Assembly (NCBI GenBank): GCA_034530875.2
Contig: JAVRCJ020000045.1
Coordinates: 1 to 54,483, forward strand
DNA length: 54,483 bases
Direction: 5' to 3'
Source: Nostoc sp. DedSLP01
GTDB taxonomy: Bacteria; Cyanobacteriota; Cyanobacteriia; Cyanobacteriales; Nostocaceae
Notes under the pieces: generated by a model
Seen by the model: the letters and a program-made list of their open reading frames with translations, nothing else
Told to the model about the DNA's origin: nothing
Databases searched by the model: none
Shown: in pieces, positions 8,991 through 54,483 of the stretch
Layout of the letters: each line of letters begins with the position of its first letter
Position numbering within the stretch: position 1 is the first letter of the stretch
Translations under genes and position numbers: made by a program

Positions 8991-8996
8991 ATTTGA

Positions 8997-21038: not shown

Positions 21039-21157
21039 AATTTACTCCAACAACAGCAAAATTCTTTGTAATTCTCCACAAATTCCACCAACACTATCAA
21101 CTTATCTTTAGTGTTAATGTGTATTTTCAGTACGGCAAATTGTTAGACAACAATCCT

Positions 21158-21661: not shown

Positions 21662-21689
21662 GTTAAGAGCCACTAATTGTAATATATGA

Positions 21690-22112: not shown

Positions 22113-22120
22113 GGTTAATT

Positions 22121-36564: not shown

Positions 36565-36636
<72 letters not shown>

Positions 36637-36719
36637 TCTAAAAAATCAAGTATTTCAGGGCTTTCAAGCCCTTTTTTATTGGACGTTCAAAGGCTTATAA
36701 AATAAGCCATCAGAGATTT

Positions 36720-36858
36720 TTGGGGTTATTTTGGGTAGTTTGGGTAAAGAACTGGGGTAAAACTGGGGTAAAAATGTAAGGTAGAGGTCTTTACTCCAAT
36801 AGGCGTTTCTGGGGTAAAACTGGGGTAAAGAGTAAAGGTAAAGGTCTTTACCCCAGTT
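36720..36858. repeat. Putative integrase arm-type sites
   Basis: Two about 47-bp units 57 bp apart, each with tandem ctggggtaaa and an inverted tttac(t/c)cca. Confidence 0.7.
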
Positions 36859-36867
36859 AATTACCTT

Positions 36868-38106
36868 ATGGAATCTCATATATCTCAAAATCTTGCCCGT
36901 CGGGGTTCAGTGCAAATCAAGAACTCTAACGGCAGTCTGCAACTAGTTTTTTCTCATCCGATTATTACACCGACGGGAGAGCTAAAAACCAAGCGTTTCT
37001 ACCTTTCGACAAGGCACAATGATACGCCTTTAGGAAGGCATCTAGCATCGACTTTAGCGGCAAAAATCCAGAGGGATATTGACTATGGAGAGTTTGATGC
37101 CAGTTTAGCTAAATACAAACCAGCAGCTTCATTAAGCACTGTTAGCCCAATTACCCCAAGTACTCCTTCAGCTAACCCCCAATATGACTTGGGAGAATTA
37201 TGGGAAAAATACGCTGAGTTTAAAAAGGCACAGGTTAGTCCTTCTACTTATGCAGTTGACTACCGCAAGTATCGCAATCATATTGCTAAGTTACCAACAA
37301 AAACCTTGGATGATGCGATCGCAATTCGAGATTATTTACTCGCAAATCTCAGTGCTAATGCAGCTAAACGTACTTTGACAAATATAAATGCTTGCTGTGA
37401 TTGGGCACTTAAAAGTCAGCTAATTGAATCAAATCCCTTCCAAAGTATGGCAAAAGATATTCAGATACCAAAGTCAGAATCGGTAGAATATGAAATCAAT
37501 CCTTTTACTAAAGAAGAACGGGATAGCATAATTCAAGCATTTGAGGAGAGCAAACTCTACAGCTACTATGCTCCTTTAGTCAAATTATTATTTTTTACTG
37601 GATGCAGACCATCAGAAGCTATCGCCTTACAATGGAAGCATATCAGTGATAGATACATTACCTTTGAGCAAGCAATTACTATTAGTAGTAAAGGACTAGC
37701 CCTTAAAGAAGGATTGAAAACCCAAAGTCAAAGACGTTTTCCGATTGGTCTTCAGCAACGTGAAATTTTAGACTCTATCAAACCAGAGAACTGTAATCGA
37801 GAAGATTTTATCTTTAGAAGCAAGAAAGGCGGCATAGTAGACTTTGGAGATTTTCTCAATCATGCTTGGAAAGGTTACAAAAATCAGCGTGGAACACATA
37901 TAGATGGAATCGTAACTCAACTTGTAAAACAAGGTGTAGTTAGCGAATATCGCAAACCTTACCAATGCAGACACACTTTTATTACTCTTTGTCTGGAAGC
38001 TGATATTGATGCCAAGGATGTAGGAAGGTGGGTTGGTAACTCTCCAGAAATTATTTACAAGCATTACGCAGGTAATAAACGTAATCTACAGATGCCAGAG
38101 TTATAA
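36868..38106 (+). CDS. Tyrosine recombinase/integrase with N-terminal arm-binding domain
   Basis: TGCRPSEAIAL, K(TQ), YQCRHTF, VGNS, KHY catalytic motifs; adjacent to tRNA-Cys. Confidence 0.95.
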   Translation: MESHISQNLARRGSVQIKNSNGSLQLVFSHPIITPTGELKTKRFYLSTRHNDTPLGRHLASTLAAKIQRDIDYGEFDASLAKYKPAASLSTVSPITPSTPSANPQYDLGELWEKYAEFKKAQVSPSTYAVDYRKYRNHIAKLPTKTLDDAIAIRDYLLANLSANAAKRTLTNINACCDWALKSQLIESNPFQSMAKDIQIPKSESVEYEINPFTKEERDSIIQAFEESKLYSYYAPLVKLLFFTGCRPSEAIALQWKHISDRYITFEQAITISSKGLALKEGLKTQSQRRFPIGLQQREILDSIKPENCNREDFIFRSKKGGIVDFGDFLNHAWKGYKNQRGTHIDGIVTQLVKQGVVSEYRKPYQCRHTFITLCLEADIDAKDVGRWVGNSPEIIYKHYAGNKRNLQMPEL

Positions 38107-38200
38107 ATTTGTTGAATTAAAATATAGGCGATCGCCTACAAAGCAATTGTGTCAATAAAAAAATACGGCGATCTAATAAAAGTAGCTTTTGCACCGAATG

Positions 38201-38353
38201 CTACCACTTCCGATCGCCTTGTTCATTAACTCTTACTGCTTGTGTAAATAACATAATGACGCGATCGCGGTCATTGTTTAAGCCATGACTGAAGATTAGC
38301 TGTATCTCTGACTGCATTAGAACCTTGGCGCGTACATGCTGATTGATTTTCAT
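38201..38353 (-). pseudogene. N-terminal fragment of a small site-specific integrase
   Basis: Manual translation MKINQHVRAKVLMQSEIQLIFSHGLNNDRDR...AVRVNE. Confidence 0.65.
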
Positions 38354-38368
38354 TACCAGAATGTAGAC

Positions 38369-38758
38369 TTAGACCAGCAAGTGGGTGACAATATCTTGAG
38401 CGATTTTTTCTAATCGGTCATCTCTGGTAATTAATTGATATTCTCTGGCACATTGTCTTTCTAATTTCTTCTCTTCTTCCTCATCCAGTGTTGCTGACTC
38501 AATGATTTCTGCCATATCTTCATTGAGTGCATCATTGGTGAGTTGCAATTCAGGAATTCTGTTTTCGTAGTAGAGGGAAACTGTGGCGCTATCTTCTATT
38601 GATTGGCGGAAGTTATAAATGCTGATGTAATCACCAAAGGTTTTTTTGGTTTCTTGTTCTCCTAGCATTAAAGGTGTACCAGTGAAACCAATGAATGCTG
38701 CATGAGGTAAGGCATTCCTCATGTTGAGAGCAAACGTGTCATACTGACTGCGGTGGAC
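38369..38758 (-). pseudogene. hsdR: Type I restriction subunit R helicase-region fragment
   Basis: HRSQY...NALPHAAFIGFTGTPL...FGDYISIY. Confidence 0.9.
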
Positions 38759-38810
38759 GCATAGGTATGGAGTATCGATTTACTCCATTTTTAACTCAAA
38801 AGTTCGGCAT

Positions 38811-39029
38811 TTAGGAGTTCCGCTGAATTGGTAAAATTCTTACCTTCGCTTTTGGTTCATCCACTGTTAGCAAAGCACCCATTGCTAGTTCTTGCTGAAA
38901 TTGACGCAAGGCATTGATAACTAAATTACCTAAATTAGCTGGTAGGATGTCTTGCGATCGCACTTGAATGACATTGGGTGCATCAGCTTGAGTCATTGCC
39001 AGCAGCAGGGCGAACGCATCTAAAATCAA
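38811..39029 (-). pseudogene. DUF5615 PIN-like protein C-terminal fragment
   Basis: ALLLAMTQADAPNVIQVR...GALLTVDE...VRILPI; N-terminus absent. Confidence 0.65.
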
Positions 39030-39126
39030 GTATTTCGGAGTCGGTCGCTCTAAACCTTAATAACTTCGTTGGCTAAATTTTTAATCAACCATGAAATAAC
39101 TTGATGAAATTCTTTGGCTAACAGGC

Positions 39127-42100
39127 TTAACCAGATGTATTTGAGTAGGCTGGAGGAATCGTTTTTTCCACCTGACAAAGAGATTGACGATCGCCCAAAT
39201 CTGGATGCGATCGCAAATAATCTCGTATCCAAATACAACCAGAGTGCAATATCTGGTTACTATCTAAAACGCGATCGAGTTGCCAGAGAATCACAACATC
39301 ATCTAACCCGGCTGATGCTAGGATTGCTCCTTGGTTCTGGGTAGTGGGGTAAAAGGCAACATTCAATGCTCGTTGTTCGTGTCCTTCCAGAGTAGCGCGG
39401 AGGATGCCATCTAGCGACCAAAGTTTTACTTTATTATCCCAACCAGCTGAAGCTAAGACAGTACCCCAGTTGTCGGGGAGTCCAGAATGAGGGGGAATGA
39501 AGGTGATACCATTTACCCGATCTGTGTGGGCGGGAATGGTGCGAATTAATTTACCCTCTAACGACCACAGCTTAATTGTCGTGTCCTCACTGGCTGTAGC
39601 AACAAACTTTCCATCAGGGCTAAAGGCGACATCCCAAATAGTCTCGTTATGACTTTTCAAGGTGAATTGCGGCTGAGATGGAAACTTCCCGTTTGCATTC
39701 CTGTGCCAGAGGCGAAGAAACGTATCTCGACCGCCGATCGCTAACCATTGGTTATCAGGGCTAAATGCTCCAGCATTGAGGCGATCGCGGTTTTTAGGTA
39801 GGGACTCACTCAGGGTTTGGATGAAAGTGCCATCCCGCTTCCAGAGTTTGGCTGTGCCGTCCCAACTGATGGAAGCTATTTCTAGCCCATCGGGACTAAA
39901 CACCACATCCCGCACTGTTGCGTTATGGGCTGAAATCGTTTTTAAGGGTTTTCCCTGCATCGTCCATAAAGTCAAGGAACCATCATCGCTACCTGCGGCG
40001 ATGTCCTTCCCGTCTGGGCTGATATCCACTGACCAAACCTGTCCCGGTGGCGGGGTTAAGGTGTTGAGCAGTTGTCCGGCTCGATTCCACAGCTTAATGG
40101 TGCCGTCAGCACTAGAGGAAACGATTGTTTGCCCATCAGGGCTAATCGGCGTGTGCCAAACAGAGGCACGATGACCCCGCAATACCGTGAGAATATCGCT
40201 TTGCCGCTGCCACAGCCGCACCAAGTTGTCTTCACCACCGGAAATCAAACGACGACCATCGGCACTGAAAGCTACTTCCCATGTACCGTTAATATGGGCA
40301 TACAGGGTTTGATTGACAGTTCGATCGCTGTTCCAAAACTTAATTGTGTTATCCCAACCAGCTGAAGCGAGGGTTTGTCCATCGGGGCTAAAGGCGAGAG
40401 TCACCACGCTGCTGTCGTGTTCTGTGGCAGTTTCCAATAAAGTGCCAGTGACAGTCCACCAGATAACATTACCAATCCAGTCTCCAGCTACCAGAGTTTG
40501 TCCGTCAGGGCTGAAGGTGACGCTCATCAGACGGTTTTTGCCTTTTTTGGATGCGATGGGATTATTCAGTGTCCGAATTTTCTTACCCTCCAGATTCCAG
40601 AGGATGAGAGTATTATCATCACTAACCGAGGCTAGGGTGTTAGCATCAACAGGACTAAACGCCACCTTTGAAACTGCACCGCTGTGTCCCTTAAAAGTGC
40701 GAATCAAGCTGCCGTCGATGCGCCAAAGTTTTACTGTCTTGTCGTTACTAGCCGAGGCAATCCATTGTCCGTTAGGGCTGATGGCGAGCGATCGCACCCA
40801 ATCTTGATGTCCATTGAGTGTTTTAACCAGTGTACCGTCCAGCTTCCACAGTCGCACCGTGCCATCTTGCCCAGCCGAAATTAGTTTATCGCCTTTGGGA
40901 GTAAAGGTGACATCAAAGACTTCTCCTTTGTGACCGCTAAGTACTTTTACCAATGTGCCCTCGCTTTTCCACAGAGTAATCTTACCGTGTTGGTGAGCAG
41001 CAACGATTGTCTGTCCGTCGGCAGTGATGGCAATACCCCGCACTTTTCCCTGTTTACCGTTTAGGCGGTTGCGTTCAATGACTTGAAAGGTGGCACGGCG
41101 CAATTCTCGATCTACCTTGGTAAGTAACTCAGCAGGCACATCCGCTAATTTGCTCAATCGAGTCTGGGCTTTGATGGCACTGACTAAAGCATCTAATCGA
41201 TTCCCAGAGGCAAACTGAGCTTCCGAGACGTTAGCGATCGCTTCAATTTCTCGGAGAGTGGCTTGATGTCTTTGGGCAAAGGCATACATTCCCAAGAAAC
41301 TGGCGACGAGGAAAGCAATACTAACAGTCCCCAGTAACCACTTTTGCAAGCGACTAGCACGTTTTTCTTGTTGCAGCCGCTTTTCAACTTCTTGCAGTCG
41401 CCGGAATTCTTCTTGTCGTTTCAAATCATCTAAGTCGGTGCTGGTGCCAAACCATTTCACCACCTGTCCGCTTCCATCCTTGATGGGAATCGCCCGATTG
41501 AGAAACCAGCGATAGTTTCCCGCGACATCTTGTATTCTCAGTTGCACTTCATAGGGTGAGTTGGTTTCTAGGGAATGTTTCCAGGCGACAAGGCTATTGG
41601 GGCGATCTTCAGGATGAACCACATCCAGTCTTTTCCAGTCCGTTACCTCCGAATGCGATCGCCCCAAAAAGGTACTTAAGTGCTGGTTGGTATAAGATAG
41701 TCTACCATCTGGCTCTACAATCCATACCATCTGGGGCATTGCTTCTGCTAGTTGCCGAAAGAACCTTTCGCTTTCTTGCTGCGCCGCAAATTGCCGCTGG
41801 ATTTCTTGCTGTTCTGCATCCTGACTGGCGGCCAGAAATTGGTAATCTAAATCGCTGAGGCTTTTGTTTTGCGCCCACTTTTGGGCATCAATTAGAGCTT
41901 GTCCCCGTAAAAGCCGGGATGTATCCTGTTTTTGAGAAGCAATCCAAGCTGATACTGTTTCATAGTAGGGACATAGTTGATTTAATTGTGCTTCTACCCA
42001 TTCCCGATTAAAAACGTTTTGATATATGCGATTGCGGATTTGCAGATATCCTTGATATTTAACTACCAAACCAGAAAGCAGCAGTTCTACCTGTTCTCGA

Positions 42101-43080
42101 CTGTCGTCGGCTGCTACGGGAATAGCTTGTAAAAGTTGCTGATAGATTCCGAGTAATCTACTAATGCGCCGACTATTGTAAAGTAAGCGATTGCGAATTG
42201 TGCGTAAATGCTCTGGTTCGTCTTGAGATTCCCAATTGTTAATGATTTGCGATCGCACTAAACACTCTATCCAATCTGCTTCTTTACCTGGTGCAATTTC
42301 CAAAGGGCTAGCTTTCACCACCAACTGACATAATTTTTGCGTTAGAAATGGCTGTCCATTAGTCCAAGCAATAATTTCTTTAAATACCGCTTGGGGATTG
42401 CTCGCAACTTGCTCTAATCCCACTACCAGAGGTTGAGCTTCTGCTAATGTAAATCCTTCTAAATTAATAGCAACACCGATATTAAAAGGTGTTTTGAGTT
42501 TATTTTGAATTAAATCAGAGGGAGTTGCAACGCCAAATAAAGCAAAACCCAGTCGTTCGTATTCAGGATTATGGACTCTTTGTTGATAACAAGCCCGAAT
42601 CCAGGCATAGAAATCATCTATGCCAAAGCTTAATTGCAGCAAACTATCAATTTCATCAATTAAAATAAAAATGCGATTGTTACTCAGGTTTACTAGCAAA
42701 ATATCTTCGATAAAGTTGCCCAAGCGTTGTATGAGTGAGAACTCACTTTGCTCTTGCCACCAAGCTGCAAAATCGATTTTCTTAGCTAATCCAAAACTAT
42801 GCAGCAAGCGGACAATTATGCCTTTATAAAATTGTGTTTCGGTGAGTTCTTGGCTGCGTATTTGTGTAATATCAATGTAAGCACAACTAAAGCCTTCATT
42901 TTGTAATCGTTGCTTGGTATGTACCAGTAGTGAAGATTTACCTATTTGACGACAGTTGAATACATAGCAAAATTCCCCTGCTTTCAAGGCTGTATAAAGT
43001 TCAATGTCTGCTTGCCTAGTAACATAGTTGGCAGCATTAGCATTTAGACAACCACCAACTTTGTAAATACTTTTGTTCAT
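39127..43080 (-). CDS. AAA_35 (STAND-like) NTPase + PAS + TM + WD40 beta-propellers
   Basis: YVTRQAD, RQIGKSS Walker A, LIDEID Walker B; PAS VHPEDR...YRWFL...WFGTSTD; about 14 WD repeats. Confidence 0.93.
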
Positions 43081-43114
43081 GATAGCAAATCATAATTTGC
43101 TGAACTTTGTCTAA

Positions 43115-44632
43115 TTAGAACTCCAGATATTTTTTTAAGAAGTCTCGATATAATTGACAACTAATCACCCATTTTTGTTGCTGCAATTTAATTAACCCCA
43201 TATCTTCTAATTTGTAGGCACTTAATATATCTAGATCGATATTCTCATTTTTTGTGAAAAATATTTTCATACTATCTAATAATTGGGCATTTTTTTGTAA
43301 TTTATTTAATAAGTTTTGTAAGTATTGACGATAAATTCCTAATTCTGTACTTGCTGTTAGCAAAATATCTTCTAAGGTTAATTTATGATAGCGCAGATGA
43401 TAAAGAGTAATATTGATCAATGCTGGATGTCCCCCGATTAATTCCATTAGCTGCTGCACTTGCTCATTTTGTTTCCAATCTATTCCATATCGATTTGCTA
43501 ACTCAATTACATGCTCAGAAGTAAATTCCAATAATTTCAATGGTAGCCCAATATTAAAGGGAGATTGATTAATATCAAGAGAAAAATTAACTTCTGTTGA
43601 ATAAACAATTACCAACCGTAACTTTGGCCATACTTCATCCTGTTGCGCTTCTTCTTGCCACGAACGTAACAGAGGTAGAAATTCATTGGCTAGTTCGGGA
43701 TATTCAAAAATATGCTGAACTTCGTCTAATACTAATAATAAAGGTTTTTCTAAAGGTGCAAGCAAACATTCTTTTAGATAAAGAGTGCAGCTGAGTTTAC
43801 TACCAATTTCTTCGTCCCAATGTTTATCGATATTAAATTCTATGCCTAGTTGACGAGCTATACTTGCAGCTAACCATTGCATGAATAATTGAGGTTTTTG
43901 CAAAACATCAATATCAACTTGATCGATATTTAGTTTTGCTGTTTTATAGTCTAATGTTTTGGCATGAGCTAAAATCCGCAACATCAAAGATGTTTTACCC
44001 ATGCCTCGACAACCTTGAATGCGAATGACACATCCCGGTTGCGTGATTTCTTGATATGCTAGTTCTTCTAATGGAGGACGAGGAATATAGAATTTAGAAT
44101 CTAAAGATAAAGGAGCGCAGGGATATTTTATATATTCACTAATCTTTGCTTGAATGTTGCGATCGCTCTGTTTTTTGAGTGTAATTTCACTCTTAATTTT
44201 CTCTTCACTGAGAAATATGGAAACAATTTGAGATGGTGCAGTATTTGGTATGATTGTTTGTTGTTGCACAGAATTATCTGAATTTTGAGATAAATCTCTA
44301 ACTATCAACTGTCGCTGTTCTTGGAAATATTCCTGGTAAAAATCAATGTCATTTGCATCATAAATAGTGTAGTCATCTTCATGCAACGTTAAATCAAAAG
44401 CACTAAAGCAGATTCGCATGGTGCGCGGATCTATCCTCGAATTCAAAGACCACAAACGGCTTAAACTAGAGGTGGAAATTCCAATGCGATCGCTTAATTC
44501 TACTTGTGTAAAACGTTTACCTCCTCTTTTTTGTCTTTCTTCTTCCAAAATTGCAGTTTGCAATCTCTTCATCCCGACAGCAGTTAGAACTACTCCTCTT
44601 TTTCGCAGTGATTTATTTTTGTCTTCTTTCAT
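43115..44632 (-). CDS. HTH + AAA_35 NTPase, probable transcription regulator
   Basis: RGVVLT..G..RL and TQVELSDRIGISTSSLSR HTH; GCRGMGKTS; VLDEV; SPFNIG. Confidence 0.9.
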   Translation of the reverse strand: MKEDKNKSLRKRGVVLTAVGMKRLQTAILEEERQKRGGKRFTQVELSDRIGISTSSLSRLWSLNSRIDPRTMRICFSAFDLTLHEDDYTIYDANDIDFYQEYFQEQRQLIVRDLSQNSDNSVQQQTIIPNTAPSQIVSIFLSEEKIKSEITLKKQSDRNIQAKISEYIKYPCAPLSLDSKFYIPRPPLEELAYQEITQPGCVIRIQGCRGMGKTSLMLRILAHAKTLDYKTAKLNIDQVDIDVLQKPQLFMQWLAASIARQLGIEFNIDKHWDEEIGSKLSCTLYLKECLLAPLEKPLLLVLDEVQHIFEYPELANEFLPLLRSWQEEAQQDEVWPKLRLVIVYSTEVNFSLDINQSPFNIGLPLKLLEFTSEHVIELANRYGIDWKQNEQVQQLMELIGGHPALINITLYHLRYHKLTLEDILLTASTELGIYRQYLQNLLNKLQKNAQLLDSMKIFFTKNENIDLDILSAYKLEDMGLIKLQQQKWVISCQLYRDFLKKYLEF

Positions 44633-44694
44633 TTCTAAATGAAAATTTTAACTTGTTTTCATATTAATTTTGCTCAAAAGCGGTTTCCAGCCTT

Positions 44695-45061
44695 AAGTGA
44701 CGTATATGATGTTTGAATCGATGTAATCTAAATATTACCAGATATCTGCAACAGTTTAACTGATGTAAGTGAAGTTTTTGAACTGGGAAAAAATCAATTG
44801 ATTTTTTAGTAGTGACAAAATAAAACATGATTAAAAAATAATAAGAAAAGTTTTAAATGTCTATGTAAGCAAAAAACAAAAATTGTATATAAAAATACAA
44901 AATTTTTAGGCAAATGAAGTATTTTATTGCCCAATCCTGAGATTACCAAAGCTACAGCCTATATAAGAGTGTTTTCAGGTAATTTGCCTGCAAGTAGGTT
45001 AACTGATTTATCTGCACTTGAGGTAAATAAGAAAACATGGGAAATTTGAAGCTGTCTAAAA
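44695..45061 (+). promoter_or_regulatory. Regulatory region copy A (three 9+9 boxes and an 82-bp block)
   Basis: Homologous to 51725-52006. Confidence 0.75.
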
Positions 45062-45269
45062 TATTGGCGTTGCTCAATCAGAACTATGAAATTCTAAAAT
45101 TACTTTTTTTCCTTCGTAACTTTGTGCCTCAGAAAGCGGTAACGCCTAAAGGCGAATGCTTGAGACAATCGCAACCTAGAGTTATGTCAAACTTTAACTA
45201 TCACCCTGACATCTGTGTTCTTGTCCTATCATTATTATTTCCATTTTTTAAATAACAGGATTGAGCGCC

Positions 45270-45647
45270 ATGAAAAGCGTGGAGAAAAAAATCGTTGCTC
45301 TTTGTTTTATCGCTGCTGGGAGTCTTTTCTGGAGCATGGTAGGGCTGGTTAGCTCTGCCCAAGCTCAAAGCTTTGAACCTGTTTCAATAATCATTTCCGA
45401 ATCTTCTAAACCTGTCACCTACATGACAGTACTCGACAAAAATACAATCGTCATCCAAATTACGGAGGGCGAATTTAACTTCCACGGCTATCTGGAGAGG
45501 ACATCTGGCAATACATTCATTGGCGAAAACGAGCAGGTGCGCGTCATCTATGACCGAGGTACTAAGCAGGTTGTGGTGATTAACAAAAAGACGGGGACTG
45601 AGTTTTACAACTACTACTTCTCTGATACCAATGAAGGGGCGCTTTAG
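45270..45647 (+). CDS. Secreted hypothetical protein
   Basis: Signal peptide ending AQA. Confidence 0.8.
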   Translation: MKSVEKKIVALCFIAAGSLFWSMVGLVSSAQAQSFEPVSIIISESSKPVTYMTVLDKNTIVIQITEGEFNFHGYLERTSGNTFIGENEQVRVIYDRGTKQVVVINKKTGTEFYNYYFSDTNEGAL

Positions 45648-45705
45648 GTTCAAGCAATCCAATTTGTAATGATTCCTAAAATATTTGCACTCTTGAGAAA
45701 ACAAC

Positions 45706-46269
45706 ATGAAAATAAACCGTTTAATTCCGATTGTTGCGAGTTCCCTAATCATCACAATTGCCCTCAATGCCCAGGCTCAAAATGCTGGAGATCCTGTTCG
45801 CGGACTTCAAGATTTAGTGAATGTTCGCGGACGAGATGGAGAAGCCATACTCCAAAAGCGGGGCTATAGGTTTCGCTGGGCTGAAAAATCTGATGATTCT
45901 ACTTATAGCTTTTGGACTCAAACTAAAACCGGTCGGTGCATTAGCGTGAGGACAGAACAAGGTCGCTATGTCTCTCTGGCTGATACCGGAACCACGGCCG
46001 ATTGCGATCGCGGCGATAGGAAACGTCCTCAAAATACAGGCAATTCCTCTTCCCGACCCTTGCCAGACCTAATAGGAGCGAGGGCTGGTCAAGCAGAACG
46101 TGAAGTGCGGCAGCGGGGATATACCTATCGCCGTAACGAAAAAGTATCAAATACTTCTGTTGCTTCGTTCTGGGTTGAAGGCAACTCAGGTCGGTGTGTA
46201 GAAATCGTTACCTCAAACGGTCGCTATCAAAACATCTTTTACGTTGATTGGCATCACTGCCATAGATAA
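45706..46269 (+). CDS. Secreted protein with two internal repeats
   Basis: Signal peptide ending AQA; repeat L.DL...R....E..L..RGY...SFW....GRC....T..GRY. Confidence 0.85.
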   Translation: MKINRLIPIVASSLIITIALNAQAQNAGDPVRGLQDLVNVRGRDGEAILQKRGYRFRWAEKSDDSTYSFWTQTKTGRCISVRTEQGRYVSLADTGTTADCDRGDRKRPQNTGNSSSRPLPDLIGARAGQAEREVRQRGYTYRRNEKVSNTSVASFWVEGNSGRCVEIVTSNGRYQNIFYVDWHHCHR

Positions 46270-46362
46270 TCTAATCCCGTTCTTGTGTCTAAACCGATTG
46301 ACACTGGCGAAATTCTCAATGATAGAGTTTCCAAACAAATTCATCTAGGCTCAATGCAACTA

Positions 46363-47064
46363 ATGAAAAGCTTGCGAATATTAGCCCCTACTTTTCTGGG
46401 TTTATTAACTCTGACAGTTACTCATCCTGTTAACGCTCAAGCAGCGATTGACACTTTAGACAACGGTAATCTAAGTGTGACGGGGATGACACGAGGAAGC
46501 GGCTGCACTGTCCTTTTTAATCCTCAAGGGGAGCTACTTCAAAATGGTCGTTCCTGTAGTTCAAGAGAAATTAGTAAAGCTCAAACTGCGATCGATAGCT
46601 ATTTGCGGGAACAGCGCACATCTGACAATTACAATAGCAGTTCGTCGCGCCAAAATCTGACGTTGATCTGCTATGGTGAAGGTCGCAAACCGACTGTCAC
46701 AAATAGCTATGGATATGAATGGAACGACCGCCGCCATCGCTACGAATCAAGTAATCGCATAGAGTCAACGACTACCAACTTCGATTCCGAAGTTCAGGTT
46801 GAAATCCGCGGTACAGAGGGAAAAATCCATCTCGGTGGAAGGCTCATCCCGCCGATCCATTCGGGCGGTGACAATGGATGGTGGACGCTCGAAAACCTTC
46901 AGGTCTACCCCGATAAAATTACGGGAAAATACAGGCTAAACGGGCTAAATAAACCGCGTGTCAATATCGACCGGCGCAGCGGCAGGATCGCCATAGATGG
47001 GATTGAAAAGTTTCGGGGCGATTGCAACTCAGGCGACTGGAGCAATAGCAGAACCCGATTCTAG
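46363..47064 (+). CDS. Secreted hypothetical protein
   Basis: Signal-like N-terminus, paired Cys residues. Confidence 0.75.
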   Translation: MKSLRILAPTFLGLLTLTVTHPVNAQAAIDTLDNGNLSVTGMTRGSGCTVLFNPQGELLQNGRSCSSREISKAQTAIDSYLREQRTSDNYNSSSSRQNLTLICYGEGRKPTVTNSYGYEWNDRRHRYESSNRIESTTTNFDSEVQVEIRGTEGKIHLGGRLIPPIHSGGDNGWWTLENLQVYPDKITGKYRLNGLNKPRVNIDRRSGRIAIDGIEKFRGDCNSGDWSNSRTRF

Positions 47065-47186
47065 TTTGCTGTATTGTTGGGTTTCGTCAAGACAAAAACA
47101 AAACCCATGTCTTCGCAGTTGAAAACTGGTTTGCTGATTAATTAGAACAATAAACAATGAATTGCTTGCCACGGAGAAATGATCGC

Positions 47187-47612
47187 ATGAAAAACTCTGC
47201 CTTGACTCTTATTCGTAGTGTTTTAGCCGCCTCGGTTATCACCACATCGCTCACATTTAGCTTCACTCCACCGTCGTTAGCTCAGGCTCATACGACCGTA
47301 AGGTTTTCCGCTGGCAAAGACAACACTTTTATCCGGTCTTCGATTACCGGCAACCAATACCATGACTATATTCTAAATGCGCGGGCAGGGCAGAGCCTCT
47401 CGGTTTCGTTGATTACCAAAGGAGCAGCATACTTCAACATTCTCTCACCAGGCAGCACAGATCGGGCAATTTATAACAGCTCAATATCGGGCAACGACGG
47501 AAACGTTCGTTTGTCACAGACTGGTAACTATACAGTTCGTGTGTATCTAAAGGGTGGCAGTAAGGACAGAAATCGAACGGTTCCTTTTGAACTTTCAGTC
47601 GGTATCTTGTGA
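47187..47612 (+). CDS. Secreted PPC-like beta-sandwich protein
   Basis: Y.LNARAGQSLSVSL...L.QTGNYTVRV pattern; GGAG RBS. Confidence 0.8.
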   Translation: MKNSALTLIRSVLAASVITTSLTFSFTPPSLAQAHTTVRFSAGKDNTFIRSSITGNQYHDYILNARAGQSLSVSLITKGAAYFNILSPGSTDRAIYNSSISGNDGNVRLSQTGNYTVRVYLKGGSKDRNRTVPFELSVGIL

Positions 47613-47642
47613 TGGTTGCTTTTCAATACTAGAGAAAAGCTT

Positions 47643-47691
47643 GAAAACTGTTAGAAGCGATACGTTTATCGCATCGCTTTTAACAGTTTTC
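47643..47691. terminator. Long hairpin after the secreted-gene cluster
   Basis: gaaaactgttagaagcgat...atcgcttttaacagttttc. Confidence 0.6.
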
Positions 47692-47776
47692 TCGATCGCT
47701 GGAAGTGCAACAGTCTAAACACCTCCAACAGCGTATTATGTGCGGGATCTTAGGCAGAAATTTTCTGCCCAATATA

Positions 47777-47906
47777 AGGGAACTCCAAAAAATAAATTAT
47801 CCAATTTTCGGAATCACAACGACTTTTCCTCCCCCTGCTCCCCTGCCCTAAAAGCGTTCGCGTAGCGTCCCGCAGGGATGGGATATTTTTTTATTTGGAA
47901 GTCCCT
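47777..47906. mobile_element. 130-bp MITE with 6-bp target-site duplication
   Basis: TIRs agggaactccaaaaaataaattatcc / ggatattttttatttggaagtccct; flanking AATATA at 47771-76 and 47907-12. Confidence 0.85.
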
Positions 47907-48010
47907 AATATAGTCCGGCGGCTACCAACGACCATCTTTTGAGACATGGCAAGACACAAATCACCCTCATCAGCTTCACACCTGTTTAGCACCGCAAAAA
48001 GGAAAATTGT

Positions 48011-48604
48011 ATGTCCCCCCTAAGACACGAAGCCGCTGTACCAGTTGAATATCGACTGCTTGGACTCGATCGCCGGCTCATTTGGCCGACGGTGAGCGTT
48101 TATCTTGTGGTGTTTTTATGGTCGGGAGTCATGCCAGCCATTAACGAGGCTGTTCATAACAAAGAGGTTTTAGCAGGGACAGCTTATAATGTCGGCCCTG
48201 TAAGTTTTACGCCAACCCAAGGCTGGGTGATAACTCAGACCCCATCCCCTGTCGGGAGTTCATCAAACGCAGTGGTCTTCAAAGATGGTGTGACGTTTAG
48301 CGTCAAAAGCGGTGTCTGGAAGGGAACTGCCGAGGAACTCCTCAACCAGATCGTGAAAGACCAGAATGAATTTATTGTCGAGGGTAAATTAGTTCCTGTT
48401 ACAACACTGCAAAAGGTTACCGGAGTAGCTAAGAGAATTAATGGCCCCGACTATATTGGTCTACTGCTTGCATACGTCGATGGCAAGGGTCGGGCAGTCG
48501 AAGTGATTGTGAAGGGCCCGGCCGCTACCTCCACACAATTGGAGCAACCGATCGCTGACATGATTCAGAGCATCACATTTAAACCAAAGGAGGGCAATTC
48601 GTGA
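48011..48604 (+). CDS. Membrane-anchored hypothetical protein coupled to PrsW
   Basis: One N-terminal TM; stop overlaps the next start (GTGA). Confidence 0.8.
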   Translation: MSPLRHEAAVPVEYRLLGLDRRLIWPTVSVYLVVFLWSGVMPAINEAVHNKEVLAGTAYNVGPVSFTPTQGWVITQTPSPVGSSSNAVVFKDGVTFSVKSGVWKGTAEELLNQIVKDQNEFIVEGKLVPVTTLQKVTGVAKRINGPDYIGLLLAYVDGKGRAVEVIVKGPAATSTQLEQPIADMIQSITFKPKEGNS

Positions 48605-49767
48605 TTAGCACTTCAAAAAGTGAGGGCACAATCCGCAAGGCTGCCATCGATCGTTCAGGCTGGAGCTATCCCGTCCGATTTTTTCAGCCGCACAACCCGG
48701 CGTGCTACCTGTATTGGTTGCTCGTACTCAAAGGCACCTACATCTTCTGCCAACTTTTGTTCGCCAGCGCCATCTATCCCACTGCTCTATTCATTGCCCT
48801 CTCCTCTGAGGCACTGTATTGCCTGCCTTGGATCTGGTTTCTCACCCACAAAGATCGCTATGAACGTGAGCCAGCCAAGCTCGCGCTGCTCGGCTTTCTC
48901 TGGGGCGGACTAGTAGCGCCCTGGGTTATGGCGCTCCCTGGCAATAATGCAATCCTATCGCTATTTGCGAAGCTGACCAGCCTCGACTTTTATAGCCATT
49001 GGAGTCCGGCTCTCACGGCACCCATCGTGGAAGAAAGCTCCAAATTCGTCGGGCTGGTCATGCTCGCTTTACTAGCACGCAACCATGTCCGCAACGCCTA
49101 CGACGGATTTCTGCTTGGTGCGTTTGTGGGTCTTGGCTTTCAGGTCTTTGAAGACGTGTCTTACCTTCTGGTCGCACCCGACGAAAGCTTTGGATCGCAG
49201 CAGGTTGCTGATACGTTGTCGGTGTTGGTAGGGCGTACATCTGTCGGTTTCTGGAGTCACTCGCTCTTCACGGCGGTTGCGGGTACGGGGTTTGGCTACT
49301 TCCTCGAAGCGAAAAATCGCTCGTTCGGCCATCGGCTCGCGGTTTTGGTAGGTTTTTTTCTGTTGGCTTGTCTGGCTCATAGCTGTTGGGATGCCATTAT
49401 TGGGTGGCGCGGCTTCGGGCTCATCGGCATCGTCATTGGAACGGTTGCGATTTTGCTTGCGTGGCGCTTCTCCGAGCAGCGTCAACGCAAGTTTGTCCGC
49501 GTCCTGCTGGCTGACGATGTTGCAAACGGAATCGTGACAGAAGCCGAACTGGCTGCGATTTCCAACCGACCGAAAGATCGGCGAGCTTACCTAAGACAGA
49601 TCAAGTCCTCATCCGGGCCTGACGCGGCAAAACGCGCTGGGTTCATACTCGATGCGGCGATCGATCTTGCAGCGGCAATTGCATCTACGGACAGTCTCAA
49701 TAGTCCGAAAGCCGAAGCCGCGCGTGCGGAGATTGCGAGGGTGCGCGGTGCCGCACAGTTAGGTTGA
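48601..49767 (+). CDS. prsW: PrsW-family intramembrane metalloprotease
   Basis: DRYEREP, APIVEESSK, GLGFQVFED, H motifs (SHSLFT, AHSCWD). Confidence 0.9.
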   Translation: MISTSKSEGTIRKAAIDRSGWSYPVRFFQPHNPACYLYWLLVLKGTYIFCQLLFASAIYPTALFIALSSEALYCLPWIWFLTHKDRYEREPAKLALLGFLWGGLVAPWVMALPGNNAILSLFAKLTSLDFYSHWSPALTAPIVEESSKFVGLVMLALLARNHVRNAYDGFLLGAFVGLGFQVFEDVSYLLVAPDESFGSQQVADTLSVLVGRTSVGFWSHSLFTAVAGTGFGYFLEAKNRSFGHRLAVLVGFFLLACLAHSCWDAIIGWRGFGLIGIVIGTVAILLAWRFSEQRQRKFVRVLLADDVANGIVTEAELAAISNRPKDRRAYLRQIKSSSGPDAAKRAGFILDAAIDLAAAIASTDSLNSPKAEAARAEIARVRGAAQLG

Positions 49768-49881
49768 TTACAGTAGATTCCAGCCGAAATGCCGAGGCGA
49801 TCGAGAGTGCCTGATACAGTAGAGCATGACTCCAAGAGCAAAGCTTCAAGATCGAGTTGCTCAATCACTTTACCAGAGATT

Positions 49882-51687
49882 ATGTTCCTGTTTAATCGCT
49901 TCCTCCATTCAATAATTCGGTTTGTGCTAGTCAGCGTGATGACGATCGCAATAGTACTTGGTTGGAGTGCGATCGCCCACAGTCAACTGTCCTCATCACC
50001 TACCGCCGCTTCTAACAATCCGTACAAACCCCCTAAAGGCGTCACCCGTCTCGGTGAATATGAAATTGCCAACGTGAATTCACCACTAGACAAAAACCTT
50101 TTATTTAAGGTTGTCTCTCCCACTGTTTTTAATCGCAACGAACCGCCAGAGGGAAGTCTTCCTGTGGAAGTACGTGCTGAAGAAATTACGCAACGGCTGA
50201 TGCGAGCACTCGATAGAGCCAACAAAGCCAAAGAAACTCCCATAATTTCTGTTGCCACCCTGAATAACCGCCTAATCCTCCAGCTCAATGACAATCAAAC
50301 GTCCCGTTCTTTAAGGTTGGTGACAGTGACAGAGCCAGATGCTGACTACTATGGGAAAACACTGGAGGAATTGGTCCAGGAGTGGCAAAAAATATTACAA
50401 GCAGAAGTGGAACGCATCGAGCGACTCTTCTCACCTAAGGTATTGTCTCAACGGGTTGGGCAGGCACTACAAATCAGCATCGGCTTGGTGTTGGGCAGTG
50501 TTGTGTTATGGTTCCTGCGGCGAACTCTAATTCGCAAACAGACGGTATTGCAAACTCGTTATCAAGAGCATATAGCTGAGGCAAAAGAGGCTGCGGTCAA
50601 ACGCTCTCAGGCAGAAACATCGGCCAATATTCAGGCAATCGACACCAGCGAATCAGAGGCACACACCATCGCCCATCAGCGATCGCAATTTCTAGAAATC
50701 ATCCAGCGACAGTTCACTCTCAAGCGCCAACTGGGGATCTATTCTTTTCTGACCTTACTACTGTTTTGGGCGTTTATTCTCGGATGGTACATCGGGATTG
50801 TGGTCATCATATCTCGTGTCCCCTACCTGATGAAATGGTGGAATGACGCTTTAGCCCGTCCCCTGGCGCTGCTGATTATTTGGTTTTTTATCAGTGTTGT
50901 CATTCGTATCGGCAAAAGCTTAATTGACTACATCACCGATGTCTGGACAACCCATCCCTCTCTCCCTTTGAGTGAAACTCAACGGATTACTCTGCGATCT
51001 GCAACAGTTTCTGGGGCACTAAAAGGATTAATCACCTTTGTTTTGATTACCTTCGGTATCTTGCGGACTCTAGACATTTTTAATGTACCCACTAGTTCAA
51101 TTTTGGCAGGGGGGGCTGTCATCGGTATTGCAATTTCCCTTGGTTCCCAAAGTTTGATGAAAGATTTGGTCAATGGCTGCTTAATTTTGATGGAGGATCA
51201 ATTTGCTGTGGGAGATGTAATTGAGATTGGGAATAAAAGCGGACTGGTGGAAAATCTCAACCTACGCGTGACTCAACTACGCAATGGCGAAGGTAAGTTA
51301 ATTACCATTCCTAATAGCAATATCACTGATGTCAACAACTTAACCCGCCTTTGGTCGCGGGTAGACTTTTCTATTGTGGTGGCCTATGAAAACGACCTGA
51401 AGCAGGTTTTAGAAATTCTCAGGCAAGTATCCCAGCAATTGTATAGCGAAGTGGAATGGCGCGATCGCCTGCCAGAATCGCCCGAAGTCCTGGGCATTGA
51501 TGACCTCTCCCACACGGGTATGCTAGTGCGCGTTTGGATTAAAACGGCACCGATGGAACAATGGAATGTTGGGCGAGAGTTCCGTCTACGAGTGCGCCTA
51601 GCCTTTGAAGCAAACAATATCCAGATTGGCAGACCACAATGGATTACTTACAACACAGATTTGGCAAAGTCTCCTTTTCAAAATTAG
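49882..51687 (+). CDS. MscS mechanosensitive channel with large extracytoplasmic N-domain
   Basis: GSQSLMKDLVNG...EDQFAVGDVI...GLVENLNLRVTQLR...ITIPN. Confidence 0.93.
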   Translation: MFLFNRFLHSIIRFVLVSVMTIAIVLGWSAIAHSQLSSSPTAASNNPYKPPKGVTRLGEYEIANVNSPLDKNLLFKVVSPTVFNRNEPPEGSLPVEVRAEEITQRLMRALDRANKAKETPIISVATLNNRLILQLNDNQTSRSLRLVTVTEPDADYYGKTLEELVQEWQKILQAEVERIERLFSPKVLSQRVGQALQISIGLVLGSVVLWFLRRTLIRKQTVLQTRYQEHIAEAKEAAVKRSQAETSANIQAIDTSESEAHTIAHQRSQFLEIIQRQFTLKRQLGIYSFLTLLLFWAFILGWYIGIVVIISRVPYLMKWWNDALARPLALLIIWFFISVVIRIGKSLIDYITDVWTTHPSLPLSETQRITLRSATVSGALKGLITFVLITFGILRTLDIFNVPTSSILAGGAVIGIAISLGSQSLMKDLVNGCLILMEDQFAVGDVIEIGNKSGLVENLNLRVTQLRNGEGKLITIPNSNITDVNNLTRLWSRVDFSIVVAYENDLKQVLEILRQVSQQLYSEVEWRDRLPESPEVLGIDDLSHTGMLVRVWIKTAPMEQWNVGREFRLRVRLAFEANNIQIGRPQWITYNTDLAKSPFQN

Positions 51688-51724
51688 CCTTTGGTAAGAA
51701 ACTTGCAGTGAAAAAAATATCCCA

Positions 51725-52006
51725 AACTGATGTATATGATGTTTGGAATAAAGTAATTTATCTCTTAACTGATTTAAGTGATATTTCTGTAACTGTAACT
51801 AAATTCATGGATATTCTTTGATAGAAAAAATAAAATATACAACATATATTAAAGCTATATCAAGAAAAGTTTTAGGTCGATCTCCAAATTAAATATCAAA
51901 AAATTAATAGATGGTGCTTTGGGCTAATTTGCCTGTAAATAGATTAACTGATTTATCTGCACTTGAAGTCAAGAAGAAAACATGGGAAATTTAAATCTGT
52001 CTAAAA
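51725..52006 (+). promoter_or_regulatory. Regulatory region copy B
   Basis: Homologous to 44695-45061. Confidence 0.75.
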
Positions 52007-52127
52007 ATTTTAGGGCTTCTGTTCTCTATATTTGTTCCAGGATGGGTAAGTTTAACGAGCAAATACGAAAACAAGCAACAAAGGCTAGGTGAAGTTTAAT
52101 TTGTCAATATTTAGGTGAACAAAAATC

Positions 52128-52544
52128 ATGAACCTTAAAACATTACTTGTTACCACTGTTGTATCTTTAGCATCATTTGTTGCGACTTTTCCAGTGAAAG
52201 CAAATATTTCTCAGGAAGGAGTGCAAGGAATTAATGATATTTCTGTAACCTCAAATTCTTCTGTTGTAAATCAGTTAAACCAGCCTTATCTCATCGCTAG
52301 ATCTAATTGGGTGACGCTAGCTGGAGGACGGTCAAAAAGAATTAACCTACGTACAAGACCAACTATCAACTCGGATACTAAGGGCTACGGTTTAGGTGGC
52401 GATCGCGCCCAAAATTTACAATGCGTTCAAGACAAAGATAGACGTGGTAGTCAGCTTAACTGGTGTCGAGTGAAATTCCCAAGATCGGGAGCGATTGGTT
52501 GGATTCGTAGCGACAACATTATTTTCAGCGATGGTGGCGAATAA
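52128..52544 (+). CDS. Secreted SH3b-domain protein
   Basis: INLRTRPT...GDR...WCRVKF...GWIRSD. Confidence 0.85.
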   Translation: MNLKTLLVTTVVSLASFVATFPVKANISQEGVQGINDISVTSNSSVVNQLNQPYLIARSNWVTLAGGRSKRINLRTRPTINSDTKGYGLGGDRAQNLQCVQDKDRRGSQLNWCRVKFPRSGAIGWIRSDNIIFSDGGE

Positions 52545-52672
52545 AATTGCAGTCTACACCATAGACACTGGACGATGGCTTTGAGTGAGTCTATTGCCGT
52601 TCAAGAATCGCTTAATTTGTGGTGTAAAAAGTTTGTGAGTTTTTAGTTTTTGAAAGATTAAGGTGTTAATCA

Positions 52673-53299
52673 ATGGAATATATTGCTTATTCATCTATGT
52701 TCGTGGCCTACGAAGAGGCAAACGGTCAGGCAAAATCTATCGACTATGAATTTCCCAAGTTTGACTTAGATTGGAAGAAATCTCTGAAATCTTCTGTTTG
52801 GTTATCGTTAGCTGGTTTTATAGTATTTTTTACAGCTATTACCCAAGTATCAGCAGCATTAGGCGCTTATGTCAGAACTAACGGCAGTTGTCTTAACGTG
52901 CGTGTAAACCCCTACACTAGTTCTTCAGTTGTAGACTGTATTCCCAACGGTACTAGAATTACCAGCACTGGTAGAGCCAATGGTTTTGTTCGCCTATCCA
53001 GAAATAGATATGTAGCTGCAAGATGGGTAGGTGATACGTATAACTCTCGTTCAAACAACCCAACGTCTGCTGGAGTAGGTGGACGCATCACACTCAGTTA
53101 TGGTTTTAGAGGTTCTGCTGTATCACAAGTACAAAGGCGTTTAGGGATTAATCCTACAGGTTATTACGGAAATACGACTATTGGGCTAGTCCGGCAGTTT
53201 CAAGCCAACAATGGTTTGCGTGTCGATGGTATAGTCGGCCCCCAAACTCGCAGTGCTTTATTTGGATCGTATAGCACTGTAAATGAAGGATACTTATAA
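52673..53299 (+). CDS. SH3b + peptidoglycan-binding domain protein
   Basis: CLNVR..P and GSAVSQVQRRL...FQANNGLRVDGIVGPQT. Confidence 0.9.
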   Translation: MEYIAYSSMFVAYEEANGQAKSIDYEFPKFDLDWKKSLKSSVWLSLAGFIVFFTAITQVSAALGAYVRTNGSCLNVRVNPYTSSSVVDCIPNGTRITSTGRANGFVRLSRNRYVAARWVGDTYNSRSNNPTSAGVGGRITLSYGFRGSAVSQVQRRLGINPTGYYGNTTIGLVRQFQANNGLRVDGIVGPQTRSALFGSYSTVNEGYL

Positions 53300-53435
53300 A
53301 CCGAGACGGGTGACATCCCTAGGTGGCTGGTGCGGATCTTCAGAGGCTGCGGTGGATAAAGAAGGTATTTGACTGTGGGCGATCGCATTCCAGCCAAGCA
53401 CCATTGCGATCGCCATTAAACTAATTATTACAAAC
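53300..53435 (-). pseudogene. N-terminal fragment of a second MscS paralog
   Basis: FVIISLMAIAMVLGWNAIAHSQIPSLSTAASEDPHQPPRDVTRLG versus FVLVSVMTIAIVLGWSAIAHSQLSSSPTAASNNPYKPPKGVTRLG in the intact gene. Confidence 0.85.
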
Positions 53436-54413
53436 CTGACGGGGCGACAAGGAGGCTAGAGGGCTGATTGAATAAGGGTCATAGCACGTAGACACTGTTG
53501 GAAATAGGGTAGTTTACCAGGCTTGAGATGCACAAGTGCGATCGCCAAATCTGACCAAAACTCCATAGCAGCTACCCATAAATACCCATATAATCTAATC
53601 CAAAAAGTACTATGTCGGCGTGTATAACGCTTTAATTCTTGAAGGCGACCAATATATTGTTGTAGCCCCATTTTTCGGGATTTGCGACCAGCTAAAACTG
53701 CAATTGTGTAGGCGATTGCAATCAATAAAATTAGTGCAATTAATCGTTGTCCAGTTGCGTGGCTTGATTCTAAATTATAACCACACGGCACTTGCTTCAA
53801 GTCGGCAAAGCCGCCCAACGCAGTGCCTCCACTTTTACAATCTTTAAACATAGCTTCGATGCCACTCCGCAACTTAAATGCTTTAACGGCATCTGGAAGG
53901 CTATCAAGGTTCGTTAACAAAAACCACCCAGCAGACTCAAGCTTACCACGGTATTTGCGCTTGTAATATCCAACCAAATTAAATTTGGCAAAACCTTTCT
54001 GTTTGGTAGCTTGAATTTCTGGCAGAAACAATGAGATACCAGGATTTAATCCTAAAGATTGTAAGCGTTGGTATGGCTGTTTTTCGTGTCGAATATAAGT
54101 GCCTTGTTTTTGACGCAATACAAAGCCAATTTCCTTGCTCTGTAACCAATTTGCCAGTTTTATACTATGAAACTCCCTATCTCCTAGCACAAGAATTTGA
54201 TATCCCTTGAATAACCGCAGCAATGGTCGTATTAATTTTTTCTGCTCTCCTAAATTACTACATCCTCTTTTGGGTAACAATAGCCAATTAACAGGTATTG
54301 CTCTTTTTTGTTCAATTAAACTAATTACAAATACATTTTGTGAACGCCACTGTGTTCTATCAATGGCGAATATCAGTCTTTTTTCTCCTATTTTGAGACT
54401 ATTTTTTACCCAT
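53436..54413 (-). mobile_element. IS4-family element, transposase 5'-truncated
   Basis: AIDRTQW, GDREF, WFLLTNL, R.GIEAMFKDCK DDE motifs; end ctgacggggcgacaag at 53436. Confidence 0.88.
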
Positions 54414-54483
54414 CTAGGACTTACGCATTGACAGATGTTTGACTATGTGTATTCAAGCCCATCTGTCTTTGCAAGTGTTCCAA
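54414..54483. mobile_element. Terminus of a second IS/MITE interrupting the IS4 transposase
   Basis: ctaggacttacgcattgacag, a recurrent Nostocales element end, at the point where transposase homology stops. Confidence 0.65.

Follow-up and report, generated by a model that had tools for sequence, protein, structure and literature searches.

Organization of the locus

The stretch of DNA analyzed here, referred to as the window, is the whole of contig JAVRCJ020000045.1 (C45; 54,483 nt) of Nostoc sp. DedSLP01, whose genome of 8.57 Mb has a GC content of 41% and contains HIP1 repeats. Within it, we characterized a pair of neighboring ATPase genes, A and B, together with a duplicated promoter-like element and a group of genes for secreted and membrane proteins on the opposite strand. 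Gene A (39127-43080, minus strand, 1317 aa) encodes an AAA_35/STAND-like NTPase domain (Pfam AAA_35, 89 bits), a PAS domain (PAS_3, E 2e-14), one transmembrane (TM) helix, and WD40 repeats downstream of it. The helix is the single hydrophobic segment of the protein, starts at about residue 582 and is preceded by basic residues. The product is predicted to be an inner-membrane receptor, whose WD40 propellers would lie outside.

Gene B (43115-44632, minus strand, 505 aa) is separated from gene A by 34 bp and encodes an XRE-like helix-turn-helix (HTH) head, a disordered linker, and an AAA_35/STAND-like NTPase domain (420 bits) with an invariant arginine, Arg323. In the structural model, the head forms four helices at residues 18-78 with a predicted local distance difference test (pLDDT) of about 68-88, and one relative is labeled as an XRE-family protein in its source; the nearest named relatives are Nostoc proteins. 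Judged from its domains, gene B is a predicted transcription regulator. Both proteins retain Walker A and Walker B, which read NCRQIGKS and DEID in A and GCRGMGKT and DEVQ in B. The earlier note on this DNA had described the two genes, their spacing and their Walker motifs in this way, and all of this stands.

Two ATPase subfamilies are paired across genomes

A and B belong to two AAA_35 subfamilies with a cross-type identity of about 21-28%. The genome encodes 11 type-A and 12 type-B domains. Of the 11 A genes, ten have a B gene at a distance of at most 1.6 kb and one at a distance of at most 7.1 kb, and one B stands alone; because nearly all of them are paired, we regard the pair as a general module. 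The genes next to the pair differ at every locus in this genome. A TM helix is found in 8 of the 11 type-A proteins, whose inputs comprise TM-WD40 (five), TM-CHASE2 (one), TM with a short tail (two), Ser/Thr kinase-AAA_16-GAF (two), and none (one). The type-B proteins carry an N-terminal HTH (five, assigned by Pfam or by 52-54% identity to the HTH of gene B), a TIR domain (one), or a head without assignment (six); these last six N-termini had no Pfam match at 0.05 and were therefore not counted as HTH.

The pairing extends to other genomes. A count over ten near-complete genomes found a domain of the other type no more than 3 kb away for 37 of 61 A and for 36 of 59 B domains, compared to 0.5 A domains expected by chance. 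Pairing is not strict, as 33 of 80 B loci in a GTDB scan had an A. Two small genomes encode exactly one A and one B, which are unlinked. The subfamilies also diverge together: across the pairs of this genome, identities among the A proteins correlate with those among the B proteins (Mantel r 0.77, p 0.0002, n 11), also when the TIR pair is left out (r 0.54, p 0.0011). At two loci in other genomes, matches to A and B lie in apparent single open frames (G028:C1:5710342-5713008 and G567:C12:137808-140021; 910 and 1310 aa), which suggests natural fusions. The proposal that the two proteins act as partners is thus supported by pairing far above chance, by co-divergence in one genome, by apparent fusions, and by the predicted complex described below.

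Motifs, fold, and predicted complex

The GK of Walker A is kept in both subfamilies, and the first glycine of the motif is usually replaced in both. Walker B reads DE[IVT]D in 58 of 59 A sequences and takes 25 different forms in 114 B sequences. A GxP motif is nearly invariant (GQP in A, GHP in B), as are an arginine in each subfamily (B Arg323, 100%; A Arg162, 97%).

The model of gene B (mean pLDDT 74.8) consists of a four-helix head, a disordered linker, an NTPase module, a helical bundle, and a terminal beta-hairpin. Its best fold matches are the archaeal STAND-type ATPases 2qen (E 3e-10) and 2fna (E 2e-9), followed by ORC/Cdc6 and CED-4; a profile search of gene B against PDB sequences returned P-loop matches only. 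Two structural features of the STAND class are present, namely a P-loop core with Walker A and B and, according to the fold of the B model, a helical bundle with GxP and a winged-helix-like unit.

For the complex of the A and B domains, the structure prediction reached a score of 0.69, compared to 0.02 for the best control. Contacts agreed to at least 92% between runs, with a partner pLDDT of at least 83. In the benchmark, the mark applied here was reached by 116 of 157 solved pairs and by 2 of 215 mismatched pairs. At the interface, Walker A and B residues of A (44-45, 49, 142-143) meet a surface of B that includes Arg323 and an SPFNIG loop, and the model predicts Arg323 of B to be an arginine finger directed toward the nucleotide-site face of A.

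A box tied to the HTH clade of gene B

Upstream of the secreted-protein genes lies a duplicated region of 93 nt (44969-45061 and 51914-52006, 87% identity), with shorter distal matches, which confirms the duplication pointed out in the earlier note; just these two copies exist in the genome. Each contains what we call a proximal element on the plus strand. Element 1 (44999-45046) is composed of a box (44999-45017), a -35-like hexamer TTGAGG at 45018, a 17-nt spacer ending in TG-n, and a weak -10-like hexamer at 45041. Element 2 (51944-51991) likewise has a box, a -35-like TTGAAG at 51963, a 17-nt spacer, and a weak -10-like hexamer at 51986. On the side of gene B, a distal box of 21 bp with two half-sites at a 9-bp period (44756-44776, plus strand) is conserved in orthologues and has the third best position weight matrix (PWM) score in the genome (27.2); it is a candidate autoregulatory site. 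A degenerate distal box repeat is situated nearest to gene B (44693-44714, plus strand), and the further boxes near the start of this gene suggest autoregulation. Element 2 is accompanied by two distal boxes (51723-51743 and 51765-51785, plus strand); three relatives have an M13 peptidase gene that is read divergently, away from the region matching 51723-51785.

Among the 20 distinct copies of the element, the box, built of two half-sites at a 9-bp period, lies directly 5' of TTGA(G/A/C)N in all 20 (TTGA belongs to the selecting pattern). A spacer of 17 nt comes next, in which 18 copies show TG at the extended -10 position. The -10-like hexamer keeps its second A and last T in those same 18 elements. 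This geometry would fit a weak promoter of the sigma70 type next to an activator site. A consensus promoter scanner placed the proposed promoters below its threshold and found no excess over shuffles (13 versus 15.4). The RNA runs consisted of assembled contigs of related strains only, giving no start, strand or level. Three other interpretations of the element were rejected: a structured RNA (the 93-nt repeat shows no folding advantage over shuffles, z -1.4 to +0.1, and has no Rfam match), a small open reading frame (ORF) at the ATG of the element (the frame is not conserved among copies), and a promoter of the extracytoplasmic function (ECF) type (a GTCT motif is not conserved).

To define orthologues, the HTH alone was searched against 351 genomes of the family, which yielded 17 HTH orthologues from 8 genera (at least 131 bits; next best 107; L043 and L186 are identical DNA and were counted once). 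At 14 of these 17 loci, a full-length A with PAS, TM, and WD40 is present. A 23-letter element pattern run on the same 351 genomes matched 26 of them: every one of the 17 orthologue genomes, 16 of these with an exact match, plus 9 further genomes with one mismatch, where 8 matches lie inside ORFs and one is intergenic. Neither an exact match in the 334 family genomes lacking the HTH clade nor any match to a reversed control pattern was found. We also trained a 21-bp PWM on three genomes, dropping loci with less than 700 nt upstream. With it, all 14 held-out upstream regions of orthologues reached 21.2-27.8, compared to maxima of 18.0 in 22 paralogues of the same HTH family and 16.4 in 73 other B genes. 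Genome-wide, five of the six best matches fall inside this cluster, and the full-element PWM finds the two cluster copies only.

The element is a conserved island within diverged spacers, and its copies front unrelated genes. A same-strand ORF follows 53-516 nt downstream in 31 of 32 proximal copies, and 30 of 32 precede signal-peptide-like starts, compared to 28% of mechanically called ORFs genome-wide. G567 has one box copy at a distance of about 413 kb from the pair; with transposase-like ORFs next to it, this copy gives the impression of a duplicate moved by transposition. Searched for in 401 genomes of the order, the box turned up only in this genome and at two other places, both of them within ORFs. 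A metagenome scan gave 15 stretches, of which three are real and all derive from contigs of one sample; the other 12 lack the downstream promoter geometry, and 10 of them are in low-HIP1, non-cyanobacterial-looking DNA.

It is conceivable that the box is read by another factor, such as an alternative sigma factor or a PrsW-controlled regulator, or that it is an inherited, duplicated promoter with the pair being a passenger of mobile DNA. One ancestral promoter could explain all box copies, a GTCT motif follows the element in some of them, and PrsW proteases control ECF sigma factors in Bacillus. We nevertheless consider this improbable. A global factor should have further sites, but the full element is confined to the two cluster copies; no exact box exists in the 334 family genomes without the HTH clade, and where B is absent, the cargo genes are without the box. 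In addition, the GTCT motif is not conserved and a PrsW homologue is present at just 8 of the 17 loci.

The cargo genes

All cargo genes lie on the plus strand. Behind element 1 follow four genes for small secreted proteins: s1 (45261-45647; a small beta-barrel domain shuffled among cyanobacterial secreted proteins; present at 11 of the 16 other orthologue loci), s2 (45706-46269; two internal repeats, no family; 8 of 16), s3 (46285-47064; no family; 9 of 16), and s4 (47157-47612; 4 of 16). A 22-bp inverted repeat after s4 (47643-47691) may serve as a terminator. Further downstream are p1, encoding a membrane-anchored protein (48011-48604; 6 of 16), a PrsW-family protease gene (48601-49767; 7 of 16), and an MscS-family channel gene (49789-51687; 10 of 16). 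Behind element 2 lie the genes for an SH3b-like secreted protein (52128-52544; E 5e-4, below the cut-off; 9 of 16, in 8 as the first gene after the proximal element) and for an SH3b plus PG_binding_1 protein (52673-53299; 4 of 16). Thus, s1-s4 and sh3-pg follow boxes. The set named in the earlier note (four secreted ORFs, a PrsW pair, MscS, and SH3b-like and SH3b/PG-binding proteins) was recovered on this strand, with SH3_3 matches below the cut-off. Its proposal of a regulon was borne out in part: the box is tied to the HTH clade (17 of 17 orthologue genomes), whereas neither the PrsW pair nor MscS has its own box.

The s4 protein has a hydrophobic N-terminus and is homologous to PliG: phmmer against the PDB gave 4dzg (E 1.1e-8, aligned over residues 47-150) and 4dy3 (E 1.1e-4), which together with 4dy5 represent the solved PliGs. 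According to the PDB entry names and the accessible part of PMC3458809, PliG is an inhibitor of g-type lysozyme. The s1, s2, s3, and p1 products have no Pfam or NCBIfam family, and in the ESM Atlas they fall into unnamed clusters under 0.9 only; a PDB sequence search with s3 gave no match. For a two-domain s1 homologue, the fold consists of two small beta-barrels (best Z 7.4), with PliC at Z 5.8 being within background. The cargo that relatives add includes M13 peptidases, TAP-like hydrolases, CAAX proteases, a DPBB protein, an SbmA-like transporter, and an aquaporin. Read from annotation, the theme of the cargo is secreted and membrane proteins acting on cell wall and peptides.

Modules are shared among s1, s2, the SH3b-like protein, and a 118-aa relative, and recombine into two-domain secreted proteins across cyanobacteria; they constitute an unannotated family of small beta-barrels. 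In a genome of the same genus (L037:560-4926), we found five tandem paralogous ORFs of about 210-240 aa with a common N-terminal motif, which are possibly peptide-precursor-like. A dispersed repeat resembling repetitive extragenic palindromes or miniature inverted-repeat transposable elements occupies 47777-47907 and has partial matches on about 20 other contigs.

A candidate kinase-free transmembrane switch

We think it probable, with considerable room for doubt, that A and B form a hetero-oligomeric, kinase-free switch in which B binds the box and turns on the adjacent secreted-protein genes. The genomic pairing and co-divergence suggest that the two would act together. As its sequence suggests, A would hold its NTPase and PAS domains inside the cell and its WD40 propellers outside, and may sense an extracytoplasmic cue, most likely a foreign protein, a peptide, or a cell-wall damage product. 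In the predicted complex, the helix with the invariant Arg323 of B packs on the nucleotide-site face of A in the manner of an AAA+ arginine finger in trans, so that the nucleotide state of A would set the oligomeric state of B. The box, which from comparison alone appears to go with the HTH clade of B, would place B immediately in front of a -35-like hexamer whose -10 counterpart is poor. B is probably an activator, a repressor being possible but distinctly less likely, and may regulate its own gene through the distal boxes. The output would be a set of products that varies between loci and comprises secreted proteins, cell-wall-binding proteins, a homologue of a lysozyme inhibitor, and peptidases, which by their annotation may protect or remodel the envelope from outside.

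Several observations weigh against this model. The A-B interface resembles the usual head-to-tail contact of AAA+ proteins, so its prediction could owe something to similarity with solved rings; the complex test is also often passed by close cousins, and homo-oligomers and non-cognate A-B pairs lie outside it. The HTH_3 match of gene B is weak (E 3e-4) and below the Pfam cut-off. Since orthologous promoters share descent, part of the co-occurrence of box and HTH is inheritance, and the held-out PWM result, obtained on promoters related by descent, is not independent proof. One of the 32 boxes has no gene downstream. No box lies directly upstream of p1-prsW and mscS; instead, a hairpin and a dispersed repeat precede p1-prsW-mscS. 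The cargo differs between the orthologue loci, and s3, s4, p1, prsW, and mscS are present without pair or box in G004, G007, G015, and G019. A PliG homologue occurs at 5 of the 17 loci only. Two arginines are important in PliG; s4, unlike the solved PliGs, has other residues at the matching places, and its inhibitor role is putative.

The remaining points concern loci where A is missing or altered. The A of G431 is an altered protein of 738 aa. Two orthologue loci, G519 and G545, retain the box together with a secreted gene; their B is shortened (441-442 aa), and the roughly 27 kb of fetched DNA contains no A. In the GTDB scan, 47 of the 80 B loci lack an A, 28 of them with flanks of at least 4 kb on both sides. 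Such loci would fit a B that acts as a stand-alone regulator of the box under its own nucleotide or ligand, with A as a frequent neighbor whose input is dispensable or serves another output. Gene B, with a Walker A that looks intact and a Walker B that keeps DE, might be capable of this. We regard it as unlikely, however, as A with all its domains is retained at most orthologue loci, both A-less B proteins are truncated, and co-divergence, apparent fusions, and the predicted complex indicate partnership. Moreover, because A and B also occur as unlinked one-to-one pairs, an A elsewhere in the genome might serve an orphan B.

Relation to known systems

Leipe, Koonin, and Aravind reportedly described the Npun2340/2341 family in 2004 as two subfamilies, under a name said to point to two consecutive Nostoc genes; the gene pair may therefore have been noted already at that time. 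The family, which belongs to the MNS clade of STAND NTPases, is named in PMC8195603, whose available part shows it with FGS or TPR-GreAB-PIN effectors in Chloroflexi and Aeromonas and, unlike the pair here, with no HTH partner, operator, or regulon. The fold neighbors of gene B, with 2qen and 2fna best, and the GxP motif in A and B are compatible with MNS-clade membership. The same part of that paper presents the nSTAND2 two-gene operon, in which adjacent MNS-like STAND genes both have a conserved arginine finger, one is eroded, and a hetero-multimer is proposed; its effectors are GT4 or HEPN and its example rows are gammaproteobacterial. Our pair is similar in having two adjacent STAND genes, each with a conserved arginine whose role as a finger is predicted. 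It differs in the HTH head, the membrane-protein partner, and the Walker A lysine kept in B. Walker B is variable over the 114 B sequences, but the GK of Walker A is invariant and gene B keeps DE. Neither A nor B matched GT4 or HEPN, and no nSTAND Pfam model matched the A or B domain at E up to 1. PF20702 matched nothing in this genome, yet also nothing in 14 control genomes.

MalT and AfsR are single-chain cytoplasmic STAND activators that combine sensor, switch, and DNA-binding domain and act on repeated boxes near the promoter. The pair resembles them in its STAND switch, its predicted DNA-binding domain, and its repeated promoter-near boxes, and the MalT entry 8bob is among the fold matches; unlike in MalT and AfsR, these functions are split over two NTPase subfamilies, one of them in the membrane. 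SigV-RsiV, SigW-RsiW-PrsW, and two-component systems couple a membrane input to a cognate cytoplasmic output and a local, autoregulated regulon with envelope-type cargo. Interchangeable membrane inputs, a cytoplasmic partner, and envelope-type cargo are likewise found here, and the CHASE2 and kinase-GAF inputs adjoin the A domain where histidine kinases usually carry HisKA. In contrast to those systems, phosphotransfer, receiver, and sigma domains are missing, and a predicted ATPase-ATPase interface would provide the coupling; HisKA/HATPase and receiver domains are absent from A, B, and the scanned cluster genes.

The STAND fold near archaeal STAND ATPases, CED-4, and Avs also raises the view that the pair is an NLR-like immune system, comparable to nSTAND2 or Avs, in which the WD40 repeats sense a phage or competitor and B drives defense, possibly by cell death. 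Its patchy, mobile occurrence, the adjoining restriction-enzyme remnant, and the TIR domain of one paralogous B agree with this, and the accessible part of Kaur 2021 (PMC8195603) reads active-plus-eroded STAND pairs as counter-invader systems. We hold this to be improbable: the toxic N-terminal effector of anti-phage STAND proteins (Avs, bNACHT) is on neither A nor B, PADLOC matched the WD40 repeats only, the sensor is predicted to face outward, and the genes thought to be regulated encode secreted proteins and peptidases. A non-lethal defense against lytic enzymes is, moreover, already contained in the switch model.

A literature search, with subscription papers mostly outside its coverage, turned up no account of an operator or regulon belonging to an AAA_35 pair, and the available parts of PMC7159879, PMC12803255, PMC3710099, PMC11119718, and PMC5587647 do not describe an A/B-box system; the clade tables of PMC12803255 may bear on the family membership of A and B. 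As far as the sequences tell, what is new is the clade-specific candidate operator with its local regulon, the paired-ATPase module being a variant of known STAND designs. The earlier note had mentioned neither the genome-wide spread of the module, nor the published paired STAND operons, nor the PliG homologue.

More tentatively, and with somewhat less than even confidence, cyanobacterial STAND pairs may represent a general route of transmembrane signaling beside two-component and ECF systems. A would be a transmitter with swappable WD40, CHASE2, and kinase-GAF inputs, B a receiver with HTH or TIR outputs, and the arginine finger in trans would couple them. The locus would then be the first pair with an identified operator and regulon, providing an inducible set of secreted protectants and peptidases with which the cell would counter lytic attacks on its wall. 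In the 11 cyanobacterial genomes counted, each subfamily has 1 to 12 copies per genome, annotated merely as "AAA-like domain"; if these are transmitter-receiver pairs, they make up a sizeable overlooked signaling network. NLR-like ATPases would, if this is true, act across the membrane on transcription and not on killing the cell. The box makes the model directly testable.

Surroundings of the locus and further AAA_35 loci

The unit of pair and box is patchy (17 of 351 genomes) and has different flanking genes in different genomes, which supports its mobility. The mobile island suggested in the earlier note received mixed support. To the left of the pair, a tRNA-Cys, a tyrosine integrase gene (36868-38106), and a SWI2/SNF2 (HsdR-like) remnant (38369-38722) span 36565-38722 and mark a probable insertion site in this strain only. 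On the other hand, attR was not found, no tRNA was present at the other orthologue loci among the fetched surroundings, and an integrase homologue is near only 1 of the 16 other loci, which puts the integrase outside the conserved unit. On the far side, an inverted 5' fragment of a second mscS and then an IS4-like transposase gene lie near the contig end (53300-54280, minus strand). Rfam detected a tRNA only on 36000-54483.

Between tRNA-Cys and integrase (36752-36855), two 47-nt direct repeats (87%) and an inverted partner are possible arm-type integrase sites. The GC content varies sharply within the cluster, from 53% in p1-prsW (48011-49767) to 34% in gene B (43115-44632), which suggests a mosaic origin. 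Elsewhere in the window, we noted neighboring SMI1/KNR4 and Imm1 immunity-type genes (21119-22534; no toxin gene among the scanned ORFs), apparently split or rearranged fragments resembling nonribosomal peptide synthetases (4226-9005; TubC_N-condensation-AMP-binding, PP-binding, AMP-binding-KR), a PBP-like protein with three DUF4912 stretches (16109-19519), and a MerR-CbiC fusion (19926-21038).

Other AAA_35 loci offer further observations. A clade of A-less B genes (L188-L191) is divergent from an apparent amino-acid-binding protein gene; with the box matrix, three of their upstream regions reach 13-16 and could contain a box that is related to this one but distinct. In the same genome as the window, a kinase-GAF type-A gene and a B gene flank YcaO, amidohydrolase, and radical SAM-SPASM genes, all on one strand (C4:363012-377344), a candidate pair-controlled cluster for a ribosomally synthesized and post-translationally modified peptide. 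Another kinase-GAF type-A gene and its B are directly upstream of ORFs that, judged by eye, resemble a contractile-injection tail sheath and tube (C52:1577-12743), and at C53:32069-40180 a B gene and an A-TM-CHASE2 gene are followed by DUF928 and are convergent with a TPR-CHAT gene. Finally, members of the same HTH family (about 34-37% identical) are fused to NB-ARC proteins at C29:18709-20115, C29:28339-31884, and C18:3690-7274, two of them Pfam-confirmed, which suggests that this head is common to several STAND clades.

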